Of a DNA stretch of 64,000 bases, positions 34,579-39,550 are shown one piece after another. This DNA is from an uncultured Acidobacteriota bacterium. GTDB taxonomy: Bacteria > Acidobacteriota > Terriglobia > UBA7540. The position numbers were made by a program, and so were the translations under genes. Under the pieces are notes generated by a model. It was not told the DNA's origin. It searched no databases and saw nothing but the letters and a program-made list of their open reading frames with translations. Location: positions 544,001-608,000 of the forward strand of contig CAWDSK010000001.1 of the NCBI GenBank assembly GCA_963804995.1, in the 5' to 3' direction. Positions within the stretch are counted from its first letter, which is position 1, and each line of letters starts with the position of its first letter.

Positions 34579-36978
34579 CTAAACCTTCAACTCCACAATC
34601 GTTGCGCCTGCCCCGCCTTCCTGTTGTGACGCGGGGTAGAATTTTTCCACTTGGGGGTGACTTGAAAACATTTCATGCAGGGTCTTCCGCAAAATGCCTT
34701 TACCGAAACCGTGAATAATGCGCACCCGGGAACGGCCACCGAGAAACGCCTGGTCGAGAAACTTGTCCACGCGCTCGCGGGCCTCTTCCGCTGTGTTACC
34801 TATGACGTTGAATTCTTCCGAAACCTCCGGCGTGCTCCCGGCGGGGGCCGTCGCTTCCGGAGCCGTGGCGCCACCCGGCAGAAGCGGCCGGACCTCCTCC
34901 TTGCGGACGCGCATCTTGAGGTTGCCGATCGCCACTTCCAGGTTTTCCCCATCGAGCAAAGCCGTCACCGTCCCGGGGGTTGAGATATTCGGCAACTGCA
35001 CGCGGTCACCGACCGCCAGCAGCCTCACTACCGGCGTCGCCTCGGGTGTTTCCGAGGGCATGCCCAGAGCCTCCAGCACCTGCGCATTCCATTCTTCCCG
35101 AGCCTCGTGCACCAGGACCGTGGCTTTCCGCTCGCCCCGCGCCACCACCTTGGCGGGCGCCGCCTGCTTGCGCAACTCTTCGAGGGACTGCTCCCAATCC
35201 TTGGCGTACTGGCGGAGCGTGCTCTCCAGGCGGGAATCGAGTTCGCGCAATTTCGCCCGGCGGTCGCGTTCGAATTGCTGCTCCAACTTTTCGTGCTGCG
35301 CGGTCAACTCCTTCCGCTCCTCCACCAGGGTTTCGATGCGGCGCTCCATCTCCGTGCGTTGCTGGTGCAACCCGGCCACCAGGGCGGCCGCTTCCGCGTC
35401 CGCCGGATGGAGGAGCGACCGCGCTTTCTCCACGATCGAGGGCTCCAGTCCCAGGCGCGCCGCAATATCCAGCGCACTGGACTTGCCCGGCAATCCCACC
35501 AGCAATCGATAGGTGGGCTGGAGCGTGGCTTCATCAAACTCCATCGCGGCGTTCACGGCCGCCGCGGTCTCCGCCGCGTAAGCCTTCAGGCGCGAATGGT
35601 GCGTGCTCACGAGTGTCATCGAGCCACGCTCGCGAAAGTGTTCGAGGATGGCCACAGCCAGCGCCGCCCCTTCGTTGGGCTCCGTGCTGGCGCCGATTTC
35701 ATCGAGCAGGACCAGGTCGTTCCGGTCGCCCACTTGCGCCATGGCCTCGATATTCGTCACGTGCGCGGAAAACGTGCTGAGGTTCGCCGCGATGGATTGC
35801 TGGTCGCCGATGTCAGCCAGCACGCGCCCGAAGAGCGGCAGCTTGGCTTCGCTCGCGGGCACAGGGATCCCTGCCTGCGCCATGAGCACCGTAATCCCCA
35901 GAGTTTTGAGCGCCACGGTTTTTCCGCCCGTATTCGGCCCGCTGATAATCATGAGGGTGTGGGGCGCCTTCAGTTCCAGGCTCATGGGTACCGGCTGGCG
36001 TCGCTGGCTGCGCAGGGTCTTTACGAGCAGCGGGTGACGCACCTCGTGCAGCCACAGGTCTCGCTCCTCGCGGAATTCCGGAATGCAGCAGTCGTATTGG
36101 CGGCTGAATTCTCCCTTGGCGAAAGCCAGATCGATTTCGCTTACGATATCGGTGGCCCTGTTCAGGTCTTCGCGCCGCTCCTGTAATTTGCGGCTGTACT
36201 CGCCCAGGATGCGCTGCACCTCCTCAAACTCGCGGTCCTGCAATTCCACAAGTTCGTTGTTAATCCCCAGGGTCTCCAGGGGCTCAATGTAAACCGTGGC
36301 GCCCGAGGAACTGGTTCCGTGCACGACGCCTTGCACGCGGCGCTTGTCTTCCACGCGCACGGGAATCACAAAGCGGTCGTTACGGATAGTCACCACGGCG
36401 TCTTGCAGAACGTCCTCCTGCGCAAAGCGCCGCAACATGCGCTCCAGGCTCGACTGGATTTCCATCTTCAGCCGCTCGATGGACCGCCGGATTCGCGCGA
36501 GCTCCGGGCTGGCCGTGGATTCGAGCGTGCCATCGGGATTGATCTTCCCGCCCAGCTCCGCGACGAGACTGCGGAAATCCGGCAGGGTACGCGCCAGTTC
36601 CGCCAGGCGCGGCGTGGGGTGCTTCGCGAACGTCCGGTACATATCCAGCGCCCCGCGCGCCACCTCCACCACCGCCAGAATCTCCAGCGCCTCGAGCGCC
36701 ATGCCTTCCACGCGCAGCTTGTCAAGCAGGGGACGCGGGTCGTGCAACCCTCCCAGGCTGGGGCGAGGGCTCTCCCGCAGATAATCGTGCGTCTCACGTG
36801 CCAGTTCCAGATCCTGCCGCAGCCGGGCAAGATTCGCGTGCGGCTCAACCCGCCGAAGGAGCGGCTCACTGATCGGCCCGGAAAGATAGCCGTGCAGCAA
36901 CTCGATGACGGCGGCGAATTCCAGCACCTCGCGCGAGAAGGGATCGATCGGCTTGCGGGTCAATTCGGGCTCAGACAT
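34579..36978 (-). CDS. mutS2: Endonuclease MutS2
   Basis: SGPNTGGKT, DIGDQQSI, LSTFSAH, C-terminal Smr domain IIHGFGKG; ATG start MSEPEL. Confidence 0.95.
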   Translation of the reverse strand: MSEPELTRKPIDPFSREVLEFAAVIELLHGYLSGPISEPLLRRVEPHANLARLRQDLELARETHDYLRESPRPSLGGLHDPRPLLDKLRVEGMALEALEILAVVEVARGALDMYRTFAKHPTPRLAELARTLPDFRSLVAELGGKINPDGTLESTASPELARIRRSIERLKMEIQSSLERMLRRFAQEDVLQDAVVTIRNDRFVIPVRVEDKRRVQGVVHGTSSSGATVYIEPLETLGINNELVELQDREFEEVQRILGEYSRKLQERREDLNRATDIVSEIDLAFAKGEFSRQYDCCIPEFREERDLWLHEVRHPLLVKTLRSQRRQPVPMSLELKAPHTLMIISGPNTGGKTVALKTLGITVLMAQAGIPVPASEAKLPLFGRVLADIGDQQSIAANLSTFSAHVTNIEAMAQVGDRNDLVLLDEIGASTEPNEGAALAVAILEHFRERGSMTLVSTHHSRLKAYAAETAAAVNAAMEFDEATLQPTYRLLVGLPGKSSALDIAARLGLEPSIVEKARSLLHPADAEAAALVAGLHQQRTEMERRIETLVEERKELTAQHEKLEQQFERDRRAKLRELDSRLESTLRQYAKDWEQSLEELRKQAAPAKVVARGERKATVLVHEAREEWNAQVLEALGMPSETPEATPVVRLLAVGDRVQLPNISTPGTVTALLDGENLEVAIGNLKMRVRKEEVRPLLPGGATAPEATAPAGSTPEVSEEFNVIGNTAEEARERVDKFLDQAFLGGRSRVRIIHGFGKGILRKTLHEMFSSHPQVEKFYPASQQEGGAGATIVELKV

Positions 36979-37280
36979 GGTGGTGCGGTCATTGTAGCAG
37001 AGGCGGGGATGGGGAGTAGGCCGTAGGCAGCGAGCGGTAAGCCAGGGGCGCGGGATGCGAAGCTTTGGAGTGCGGCAGCTTGCTGCCGCTTTCCTCCCCG
37101 CGAGCTTGCTCGCGGCAATCTTCAACGTGGGCTCTATCGAGCCACGGCACGGCCAGCAAGCTGGCCTCTGGACTTTGGCCTTTAACTAGATAAAGGCTGT
37201 CGGAAAGTATTTACTTGCAGAAAAGCCAGTCTTCTGATATCTAGTTATATGACTAGATATTCCTCAAGGAGGCTTTTCTC

Positions 37281-37568
37281 ATGGGGTTCCCTACCAAAGT
37301 ACAGCTTATCAAACGCCAGGCGAGCGAGCAGTGGTACATCAACTTTCCTTCCGCCCTCGCCCAAGCCATGGAGTTTGCGCGCGGCGAATCGGTCGAATGG
37401 TTCGTCGAAAACAAAGGTCTGCTGGCCCTGCGACGAGCCTCGCCGCCGCCTTCCGTGCTAAAAAAAACTCTACCGGCGTCCTCGCCGAACTCGAACAACT
37501 CTGGAGCCAATGTTTCCCGGGCTTCCGCCAGCGCCGCGTTGCCGCGCACGCCCAAGCCCTCGCGCTGA
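37281..37568 (+). CDS. IS orfA, AbrB/MazE-like DNA-binding domain
   Basis: TKVQ...QWYINFPSALAQAMEFARGESVEW fits the swapped-hairpin pattern; AGGAGG RBS. Confidence 0.7.
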   Translation: MGFPTKVQLIKRQASEQWYINFPSALAQAMEFARGESVEWFVENKGLLALRRASPPPSVLKKTLPASSPNSNNSGANVSRASASAALPRTPKPSR

Positions 37569-38908
37569 GCACCTTGCTTTGTCTGGGACGCCATACCGTG
37601 ACCGGTCTGCTCACCACTTGCGGCCTGCAGTTCCGTGACTGGACCTCCAGTTACCGGCTCTTCTCCCAGCACCGTCTGCGGGTTGAGGCGCTCTTCTCCG
37701 TGGTGCGCCGCGCGGTGGTGAGCGAACTCGCACCCGGCGCTCCCGTCTGCGCCCTCCTCGATGACTCGCTGTTGCGTCGTTCCGGTCGGCGCACTCCCGG
37801 GGTGGCTTGGCGCCGCGACCCGCTGGGCCCGCGCTTTCAAACCAACTTCGTGCGCGCCCAGCGTTTTCTTCAAACCTCCCTCGCGCTCCCCACTCCCGAC
37901 GGCTCCTGCCGCTTGCTCCCCATTGCTTTCCGCCATGCCCCCACGCCCCGCAAGCCTTCCCGGCAGGCCCCCGCCGCCGAGCAGCAGCAGTACCGCACCC
38001 AAGCGCGCGCTGCCCGCCTCGGTCAACGCGCCAGCGAACAGATCCACGATCTGCGTGCGGCCCTTGACTCCGATCCCGCCTCCGCTTCGCGCCTTCTCCT
38101 CGTCGCCTTCGATGGCGGATACACCAACCGCACCGTCCTCAAACGCCTTCCTCCCCATACCACCGCCATCGGCCGGCTCCGCAAAGATGCTCAGTTGCTG
38201 TTCCGGCCCGATCCCCAAACCCAAAAGGCGCGCGGTCGCCGTCTCTGCTACGGGCCTCCCGCTCCCACTCCCGAGCAGGTCCGCACCGACGATGCTCCCT
38301 GGCAGACCTTGACCTTTACCCATCACGGCATTCCCCATCAACTCCGCTTCAAGCGCCGCACCGGCCTCCTGTGGCGTGCCGCCGGCGCCCACCAATTCCT
38401 GCAACTTGTCGTCATCGCGCCGCTCGCCTATCGTCTGCGCCAAGGTTCCAAGCTGCTCTATCGCCAACCCGCCTTCCTCCTCTGCACCGACGAAAACCTC
38501 GACCCCCAACTCCTCATCACAACTTACTTCCAACGCTGGGACATTGAAGTTAATTTCCGCGATGAAAAAACTCTGCTGGGAGTGGGCCAAGCCCAGGTCC
38601 GCTCCCCCCATTCGGTCGAGTCTGCCCCCGCCTTCACCGTGGCCGCCTATGCCCTCTTGCTCCTCGCTACCCATCGCGCCTTCGCCCGTACCCGCCACGG
38701 CCTGCTGCCGCGCCCCAAGTGGATCCACGCTGCCCCCACTGCCCGCATCTCCACCCAACACGCCATCCATCAACTGCGCGCCGAGGTCTGGGGCCGGGGA
38801 CTGGGTCTCGATCATTTCTCCGGCTTCGCGCCTCCCCAACCCTCTACAACGAAGCCCCAGAATTGTACCTTCCCCCTCGCCTCCGCCCTCTGCTACGCCA
38901 ATGCTTGA
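37460..38908 (+). CDS. IS orfB, DDE transposase, probably reached by a -1 frameshift from orfA
   Basis: LLDDS, AFDGGY, YFQRWDIEVNFRDEK (YREK signature); no good independent start. Confidence 0.85.
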   Translation, partial: KKNSTGVLAELEQLWSQCFPGFRQRRVAAHAQALALSTLLCLGRHTVTGLLTTCGLQFRDWTSSYRLFSQHRLRVEALFSVVRRAVVSELAPGAPVCALLDDSLLRRSGRRTPGVAWRRDPLGPRFQTNFVRAQRFLQTSLALPTPDGSCRLLPIAFRHAPTPRKPSRQAPAAEQQQYRTQARAARLGQRASEQIHDLRAALDSDPASASRLLLVAFDGGYTNRTVLKRLPPHTTAIGRLRKDAQLLFRPDPQTQKARGRRLCYGPPAPTPEQVRTDDAPWQTLTFTHHGIPHQLRFKRRTGLLWRAAGAHQFLQLVVIAPLAYRLRQGSKLLYRQPAFLLCTDENLDPQLLITTYFQRWDIEVNFRDEKTLLGVGQAQVRSPHSVESAPAFTVAAYALLLLATHRAFARTRHGLLPRPKWIHAAPTARISTQHAIHQLRAEVWGRGLGLDHFSGFAPPQPSTTKPQNCTFPLASALCYANA

Positions 38909-38992
38909 ACTGCAAAAGGCCAAAGGCCAGCGGCCAGCAAGCTGGCCTGACCAAAAACGGTAGCAAGCTGCCGCACTCCAAAGAAGGGGCTC

Positions 38993-39550
38993 CTAAACCG
39001 ACTGCGCCTCGTCTTCCTCGATTTCGGGGAGCATTTCCGCGGGCTCGCTCTTGGGCAGGTCTGTAGCGGACGACTTCTTGCCGCGCCGCATGGCCACGAT
39101 TCCCGTGCGCACCATTTCCATGACACCGTAAGGGCGAAGCGCGTCCAGGAGCCCATCGATCTTGTCCTCGGCGCCGGTGATTTCAATGGTCAGCGACTCC
39201 GGTGAAACATCCACGACGCGGGCCCGGAACACTCCCACCAACTGAAGAAGGTGAGAACGCTCATCGTGCTTGGCCGCCACTTTGATCATGGCCAGGTCGC
39301 GGACGATGGCGCGCGTGTGGGTGAGGTTTTCCACCAGCAGAACGTTGACCAGCTTGTACAGGCTCGCCTCGATGCGGCGCGCCTGATCCTGGTCAGCGTC
39401 CACCGTGATGGTCATGCGTGAGACTTCCGGCTTCTCCGTCCGCCCCACGGTCAGCGAATCGATGTTAAAGGCTCGGCGCCGGAACAGCGACGCCACCCGG
39501 GTCAACACGCCCGGCTTGTTTTCGACATGCACCACAAAAGTTCTTAGCAT
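38993..39550 (-). CDS. ilvN: Acetolactate synthase small subunit
   Basis: VENKPGVLTRVASLFRRRAFNIDSL ACT domain. Confidence 0.96.
   Translation of the reverse strand: MLRTFVVHVENKPGVLTRVASLFRRRAFNIDSLTVGRTEKPEVSRMTITVDADQDQARRIEASLYKLVNVLLVENLTHTRAIVRDLAMIKVAAKHDERSHLLQLVGVFRARVVDVSPESLTIEITGAEDKIDGLLDALRPYGVMEMVRTGIVAMRRGKKSSATDLPKSEPAEMLPEIEEDEAQSV

Follow-up and report, generated by a model that had tools for sequence, protein, structure and literature searches.

An IS701-related insertion sequence with a putative A8 recoding site between an AbrB-like gene and its transposase gene, and with hairpins as targets

Introduction

How is a transposase made when its reading frame follows an AbrB-like gene in the -1 register and has no start codon of its own at the junction? 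The question is raised by an insertion sequence (IS) of 1763 bp that occupies positions 37168..38930 (+ strand) of the stretch of DNA analyzed here, 64,000 nucleotides (nt) from an uncultured Acidobacteriota bacterium (assembly GCA_963804995.1, contig CAWDSK010000001.1, positions 544,001 to 608,000), which is called the window and whose numbering is used throughout. An earlier note, made from the letters of the window only, had read the locus as an AbrB-like gene (orfA) joined to an IS4/IS701-like transposase frame (orfB) by a probable programmed -1 frameshift. The element is present in 10 copies in its genome (blastn, 99.77-100% identity over 1763-1768 bp), and its ends were placed where the flanks of the copies diverge. 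On the comparative evidence, the account that we hold to be somewhat better than an even bet is of an IS701-related element in which slippage on a run of eight A's, most likely by an RNA polymerase that adds an A, would fuse the two products, and which lands mostly on hairpins and duplicates them whole.

Results

orfA (37281..37568, + strand, 95 amino acids) starts with the ATG at 37281, preceded by the ribosome-binding site AAGGAGG (37266..37272, + strand); an AbrB/MazE-like domain at about residues 1-56 is followed by a linker to LKK and by a low-complexity tail past the run. The orfB frame (37466..38908, + strand, 480 amino acids) lies in -1 relative to orfA and is open to 38908, and the overlap of a well-initiated orfA with a DDE frame is as the earlier note had described it. 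The run, A8 followed by C (37460..37467, + strand), reads CTA AAA AAA ACT in the orfA frame and thus holds the A-AAA-AAA (37460-37466) that had been pointed out there. Either a -1 shift or one extra A leads to the same predicted fusion of 542 amino acids (62 + 480 residues), with the junction ...PSVLKK-NSTG...; its wording, PSVLKK-NSTGVLAELEQ, had been correctly predicted.

The run has eight A's in 10/10 genome copies. It is crossed with 0 differences and 0 gaps by record 1 of contig X1 (37168-37597), which may be from the source sample, and by record 18 of contig X3 (37403-37609), from another study. Among metagenome relatives with both open reading frames (ORFs), drawn from the best 80 of 574 confirmed and biased to close relatives, 74/79 are in -1 with a run of at least 8 and 0/79 are in frame. 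Sequencing error as the cause of A8 was ruled out by the ten copies, the contigs of the two studies and these relatives. The genome holds 87 A or T runs of eight and 9 of nine, so that A9 can be assembled; the nine A's in one continuous ORF that the earlier note had set against its own reading gave way to A8 in the copies and in the contigs of both studies.

Further loci were collected from named genomes (53) and from genomes of the same phylum (9/401 with loci), the same order (42/137) and two other phyla (8/301 and 4/301); the phylum and order counts include AbrB-like genes beside other transposases. The beginning of a transposase was also present at 195 of the 226 orfA loci, and the other 31 were excluded from the junction counts. 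The resulting 131 distinct junctions were grouped into 90 lineages at 90% identity, each of which was given its majority state: 78 are in -1 with an unbroken run of 8-9 A's, 5 in -1 without the run, 7 in +1 and 0 in frame. The conservation of A run and -1 overlap on which the earlier note had staked its reading is thus seen in ten near-identical copies and in 78/90 lineages. Lysine is written AAA in 712/1283 codons elsewhere in these elements, and an unbroken run in 78/83 of the -1 lineages therefore indicates selection on nucleotides. A count of AAA at the junction (69/69) is circular, the rows having been chosen by the run, and was not used. It is very likely, on these patterns of sequence, that recoding joins the AbrB-like orfA to a YREK transposase of the IS701/IS4 clan.

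As to the agent, the earlier note had proposed a programmed -1 ribosomal shift. The selected frame transition stands; the ribosome as its agent fares less well, the comparative pattern leaning to transcriptional slippage. We favor RNA polymerase slippage, by a modest preponderance, as the probable main route to the fusion, and the polymerase and ribosomal routes may act together. With clustering at 70%, 14/16 run-bearing lineages have at least 8 A's, across all three codon phases, and a C lies directly 3' of the run in 16/16. In the main lineage this C is the silent position of an Asn codon, which is AAC in 68/68 cases, against 46/65, 40/58, 29/53 and 47/69 (55-71%) at four control Asn codons. 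One lineage (G305) has five copies in the +1 register, each with A9 and an intact transposase frame; a -1 shift would run into a stop there. These elements account for 5 of the 6 A9 runs of their genome, in which one A10 is also present, and 3/3 copies checked carry 20-27 bp duplications. L136 has one copy in the +1 register. Run length and following C, kept in three phases, together with the five-copy +1 lineage, favor the polymerase over the ribosome. In the parts of the cited papers that were available, here and below, both directions in one family are given as a mark of polymerase slippage (Antonov 2013, PMC3711429), and no IS with +1 ribosomal shifting is known (Atkins 2016, PMC5009743). 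IS1447 slips on A9 and seven A's suffice (PMC6211511), A8 is suggested to be productive in IS of Deinococcus and Nostoc (PMC1088944), and a 3' C raised insertion slippage 2.2-2.7-fold over G or T on a run of 5 A's (PMC6260861).

The same fusion might instead be made mainly by ribosomal -1 frameshifting on A-AAA-AAA with no conserved stimulator, as in IS1, an account that we regard as possible and distinctly weaker. The heptamer is in frame in 78/78 lineages with -1 and a long run, the -1 register is found in 83/90 lineages, some variants keep the heptamer (A7-G at 4 sites in G1056, A-AAA-AAG in L012), and for a proven IS case on A-AAA-AAC the available text gives no established stimulator (PMC4066793). 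The window copy also carries the hairpin that the earlier note had taken for a stimulator, CGGCG-TCCT-CGCCG (37474..37487, + strand, -9.0 kcal/mol, z -3.1), which lies 7 nt downstream of the heptamer and 6 nt past the end of the run. A hairpin at that position with 5/5 pairs is kept in 1/78 lineages, however, folding energy 3' of the run shows no excess over shuffles in four window sizes (mean z near 0), and a Shine-Dalgarno (SD)-like 4-mer lies 5' of the run in only 4/78; the hairpin was ruled out as a family-wide stimulator and is probably incidental. Nor is 6-7 A with an intact heptamer in -1 the majority state of any lineage, the C is kept whatever the phase, G305 is unreadable by a -1 shift, and as a shift site in E. 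coli A-AAA-AAA falls far behind A-AAA-AAG (PMC5009743). Switching at the level of DNA, in which replication slippage would make an occasional A9 in-frame copy that supplies transposase while A8 copies form a silent reservoir, appears improbable. Run length does vary inside genomes (one A short in 3/8 copies of G948 and 1/7 of G889), and the protein database holds natural in-frame fusions of 537-545 amino acids; in the cluster of one of them, P0080 (one larger cluster), products of 75 and 459 amino acids, the split forms, occur on 11 and 8 contigs, and each of three fused proteins occurs on 2, a minority, so that the fusions are taken as run-length variants. In-frame junctions are found in 0/10 own copies, however, as in none of the metagenome loci and lineage majorities above, and a mobile copy carries its own run length, so that in-frame copies should accumulate if they were the movers.

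Less probable still, and to our minds very unlikely, is that orfB starts alone, from GTG 37331, from ATG 37397 or from some rare start codon close to the run, with orfA as a separate regulator and the run as nothing but Lys-Lys. In the window copy the open orfB frame reaches upstream past 37331, and some relatives do have starts of their own. In G555, a divergent branch with 6 copies, AbrB-like gene and transposase are coupled by an ATGA overlap with no run, so that fusion is not needed across the whole family; in L165 a transposase GTG lies just past the orfA stop, in -1 without the run. A quick tree with long branches puts G555 inside the run-bearing group with support of 85-86, too weak for the order of states. 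Among distant lineages (L201, L162, L137, L161, L164, L043, L174, L181) orfA stops about 9-15 nt past the run, and in L201 and L162 that stop overlaps a transposase-frame ATG, which brings run and coupled start together. The other exceptional lineages mostly consist of one copy, with a transposase that is broken or runs off the contig. Against a separate start, ATG, GTG and TTG are absent from the 15 codons after the run in 76/78 lineages, and in 18/78 no start of any kind follows the last upstream stop. The upstream starts are by-products: the ATG at 37397 comes from the invariant Glu-Trp codon pair of orfA (ATG/GTG), and a start of this origin is open to the run in 58/78 lineages, with an SD-like 4-mer in 6/58 versus 67/78 for orfA. 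orfA of the window copy ends 33 codons past the run, which excludes coupling there, and a separate start would leave the unbroken run unexplained. An independent orfB start with no slippery site, the arrangement that the earlier note had named as contrary to its reading, is not what this lineage has.

Where the element inserts was read from its flanks. In its own genome 8/10 copies are bordered by 18-27 bp duplications, each a hairpin; the remaining two (G000:C1:277250 and C2:761832) have exchanged flanks, by recombination or mis-assembly, which resolve into one insertion into a 21-bp hairpin and one 7-bp duplication without a hairpin. At the window copy the duplication is an 18-bp direct repeat (37150..37167 on the left, 38931..38948 on the right) made up of a 6-bp stem, a 4-nt loop and 1 nt on each side. 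It is the whole hairpin of a REP-like (repetitive extragenic palindrome) repeat that the element splits (37063..38983, arms 37063-37116 and 38930-38983), and empty copies of this repeat hold the hairpin once.

The wider target set comprised 109 distinct insertions that passed end and flank filters, with one mismatch allowed in the duplication. Duplications of 17-34 bp were found in 59/109 and of 0-6 bp in 50/109. A perfect stem of at least 6 bp is present within 30 nt in 201/218 flanks, versus 73/3000 random 30-mers and 83/2180 shuffled flanks. The hairpin is centered in 57/59 long duplications, which represent 53 different sequences, and is accompanied on each side by 1 nt in 36 and by none in 15 (0-2 nt overall). 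The flanking sequences show the targets to be hairpins of unrelated sequence and the duplicated stretch to be the hairpin plus 0-2 nt on each side, and they suggest that the enzyme reads DNA shape. Whole-hairpin duplication, the most unusual trait of the element, and the palindrome described below are absent from the earlier note.

The same genome holds a sister family, also IS701-related (1830 bp, 7 copies, transposase 41% identical), with copies at C5:394183, C5:967979, C3:519231 (L242), C1:533858, C1:328672, C4:164956 and C6:1007095 of G000. Its orfA is HARE-HTH-like (PF05066, E 5e-4), its transposase has its own ATG by an ATGA overlap, and 5/7 copies have exact hairpin duplications of 18-22 bp. 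The trait therefore likely resides in the transposase core, and the AbrB-like domain, considered as a hairpin sensor, is an unlikely candidate. An orfA similar to the HARE-HTH-like one is also carried by L041.

The orfB frame scores 182.8 bits against NF049999 IS701_3 (cut-off 170), 31.2 bits against PF01609 (cut-off 23) and 53.6 against the older IS701 profile NF033540 (cut-off 150). From the NF049999 and PF01609 matches and the motif positions it was assigned as a DDE transposase with acidic residues D99/D100 (37760-37765) and D216 (38111) and a full YREK motif, Y354-R357-E361-K368 (Y-2-R-3-E-6-K, 38525-38569), all on the + strand. The natural fusion P0080 falls just below the NF049999 cut-off (162.3); its model (predicted local distance difference test score, pLDDT, 72.7) matches Tn5 transposase at E 1.8e-10, and its AbrB part has a pLDDT of 30-48, which makes domain contact unreadable. 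A sequence search of the PDB with the transposase gave a best E of 0.068.

For orfA, PF04014 gives E 0.012 with the window copy alone, under the cut-off, and matches at E<=0.05 in 27/41 family members (best 1.1e-5). The predicted topology is strand-strand-helix-strand-strand, as expected for AbrB/MazE/SpoVT (pLDDT 76.5), and the Atlas neighbor cluster is named AbrB/MazE/SpoVT (12% PF04014). AbrB domains form DNA-binding dimers. A wide fold search with the orfA monomer, of a domain that forms as a dimer, had a best Z of 2.3 with AbrB not among the matches listed. A profile built from 8 orfA sequences reached 593 representatives at 50% clustering.

A palindrome with the core CTAGT-N6-ACTAG (37237..37260) lies just upstream of the ribosome-binding site and is predicted to be the operator of the AbrB-like protein. 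Its core is found upstream of orfA in 35/38 lineages (80% clustering), its exact form has 11 matches in the 7.55-Mb genome, 10 of them inside these elements, and it is missing from 7/7 copies of the sister family, which has no AbrB-like domain. A single half-site (37185..37192, + strand) just inside the left end is a predicted binding site of OrfA or OrfAB; the half-site core is present inside 98/109 left ends and 0/109 right ends. AbrB-like gene and palindrome may together form a portable self-repression module. Elsewhere, divergent AbrB-like genes were also seen coupled before IS1182-type transposases (L141, L209-L221; L221 above the cut-off) and an IS4 transposase (L206). Those before IS1182 have a different palindrome, by eye between apparent -35 and -10 boxes; the IS1182-type copy of the same genome, G000:C6:1713065 (L156), is a remnant.

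Discussion

We picture the element as follows. A single ribosome-binding site and start serve orfA in frame 0, the transposase follows in -1, and the junction has no separate start. Most transcripts would yield OrfA only, and its dimer would bind the upstream palindrome and repress the element. In a minority of transcripts an added A would turn A8 into A9 and so yield the 542-amino-acid fusion, to which a ribosomal -1 shift may add. The transposase core, not the AbrB domain, would recognize a stem-loop or an extruded cruciform and make staggered cuts where its two arms begin, so that repair would copy the whole palindrome.

Several points weigh against this picture. Since every A8 includes a heptamer in frame, the agent cannot be told from the site by itself, and lineages share ancestry, so their counts are not independent. 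Two tRNA-Lys types have been tied to polymerase slippage in Thermus dnaX (Atkins 2016, PMC5009743); the host carries both types, and avoidance of AAG therefore fits either mechanism. Slippage by the polymerase of E. coli is poor on short runs of A and requires long ones (PMC6260861). G1056 has A7-G at 4 insertion sites beside 7 A8 copies of the same element, which keeps the heptamer while shortening the run and so suits the ribosome, unless these copies were moved in trans. The +1 lineages form no clade in the quick tree, and their register may come from homopolymer or assembly errors. As to targets, the 7-bp insertion inferred in the own genome lacks a hairpin and 50/109 insertions lack a long duplication; 86/100 of the flanks of the latter are still hairpins, as expected of collapsed repeats or recombination. 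The call of orfA as AbrB-like is made on weak but concordant matches: Foldseek with the orfA model returned nothing at E<=0.001, the top rows including MazE, AbrB and SpoVT at non-significant E of 0.5-2.9, and PDB profile matches are weak (E 0.11 and 0.91).

Taken more broadly, and with confidence a little short of even, the loci may represent an IS group in at least 3 phyla, in which a Tn5-like DDE transposase would choose its targets by DNA shape alone, cleave an extruded cruciform where both arms begin and thereby leave a duplication equal to the hairpin. Its front module would be swappable (AbrB-like with operator, or HARE-HTH) and joined, according to branch, by start-stop coupling, polymerase slippage or full fusion. 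Such a group would provide an integrase that is compact, guided by structure and sparing of genes, and its branches would trace the passage from translational coupling to recoding.

Recoding in IS is listed for IS1, IS3, IS5 and IS630 in the available text of PMC5009743, and with the present case an IS701-related YREK transposase that has a partner of AbrB type would join the list. Such genes are split or truncated by gene callers. The targeting rule is the larger point, since the hairpin-seekers known so far delete the hairpin (IS1272) or else insert at a fixed sequence and make short repeats. When a hairpin is copied whole, a terminator or REP stays on either side of the element; this would insulate it and leave host genes unharmed. 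An enzyme that reads cruciforms, should this be one, would report directly on their formation in cells and might serve as a structure-guided insertion tool. The natural variants (coupled, coupled with run, run only, fused) could serve the comparison of polymerase and ribosome slippage.

The element resembles the IS701 family most closely, NF049999 IS701_3 being the best profile match of its transposase, above the cut-off. It differs in its duplications, 17-34 bp in this group as opposed to 4 bp in IS701 (PMC2266710) and 4-9 bp in Geobacillus IS701 (PMC8024623); in size, about 1750-1820 bp in two overlapping ORFs, including the additional AbrB-like one, versus 1400-1550 bp (PMC2266710); and in its full YREK motif, the Tyr of which is present in 4/27 IS701 members (PMC2266710). 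Its ends read CTGGACTTTGG, by eye a partial match to the IS701 signature ---YACT-Y--YR, and the end consensus does not span the whole IS701 family (De Palmenaer 2008, PMC2266710). A complete YREK, a Tn5-like fold and CT ends are shared with the IS4 family (IS10, IS50/Tn5, ISPepr1, ISRm22), of which the lack of a frameshift is a stated hallmark (PMC2266710), in contrast to the frame transition found here; IS4 duplications are 7-13 bp, apart from the one inferred 7-bp case a different range, and IS4 profiles score far under the cut-off on this transposase. ISRm22 also targets REPs, but inserts at the palindrome axis with a 6-bp repeat, and for the REP-targeting elements of IS3, IS110 and ISRm22 type the sites are fixed and the repeats 0-6 bp long (PMC1525189).

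Long or variable target duplications are reportedly also made by IS1634 and IS1549. In IS1, IS3, IS5, IS630 and IS1447 an upstream DNA-binding ORF, whose product can by itself serve as a regulator, is fused to a catalytic ORF by a shift on an A-rich site (PMC5009743, PMC6211511, PMC1088944). IS1, IS3, IS5 and IS630 are, however, other transposase families; the OrfA of IS3-type elements has a helix-turn-helix and not an AbrB-like domain, and the present group, unlike them, has no conserved 3' stimulator and a transposase core with its own start in some branches. Hairpin targets with little sequence conservation are known from IS1272/TnSha1 of the IS1182 family, which deletes part of the hairpin with no duplication (PMC4923244, PMC5678879), whereas this group keeps the hairpin on both sides. 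Long-repeat subgroups of IS1202 have duplications of 15-17 and 27-28 bp, fixed for each subgroup, whereas here the length of the duplication goes with the hairpin; neither "hairpin" nor "palindrome" occurs in the available text of that paper (bioRxiv 10.1101/2022.12.17.520857). The literature used for comparison also includes the accessible part of PMC3196728.

Within a literature search that lay outside most subscription papers, neither this group nor the duplication of whole hairpins was found described, and no paper combined IS701, frameshift, transposase and AbrB. Members may already be listed in ISfinder or in supplementary tables (e.g. the DDE_Tnp_1 clusters of PMC3711429). The element apparently belongs to an unnamed IS701-related group that is very likely recoded like IS1/IS3-type elements and fails the IS701 target rule. 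On plasmids orfA has no matches, and 38 records have distant transposase matches (about 25% identity among the 30 matches listed). One of the relatives, a Sinorhizobium plasmid transposase (L157, NZ_CP021214.1; NF049999 309 bits, 25% identity), is a single annotated ORF with CT..ACTTTG-like ends and similar inverted repeats, and has no long duplication in its flanks. The 77 pattern matches in viral contigs gave none that was confirmed.

Additional observations

The terminal inverted repeats of the window element (37168..37183, + strand, and 38915..38930, - strand, 16 bp) match at 15/16 bp. The host repeat lies between mutS2 (34579-36978, - strand) and the gene for the acetolactate synthase small subunit (38993-39550, - strand), both recognized by profiles above cut-off, both left unbroken by the element and both opposite to it in orientation. 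A sigma-70 scan of 37100-37400 gave 0 sites.

Two observations concern orfA itself. Contigs of runs X2 and X3 join across 84 nt of it (37372-37457), with unknown letters between, and may represent a diverged relative or a deletion form. L176, L179, L182 and L185 (G792) each have a divergent AbrB-like gene that contains an A run, and no transposase match lies behind it; the four copies diverge directly after a common short end and resemble deletion derivatives with the regulator only.

A 556-codon open frame on the minus strand (37253-38923) is antisense to the whole element and probably reflects no more than the codon use of high-GC DNA. A Lys-Pro-Glu-Lys stretch that lies some 60-75 nt in from the right end (~38855-38870) has constant codons among relatives, its last Lys being AAA in 51/51, and the window copy has Asn at that place; the constancy suggests a site at the level of DNA.

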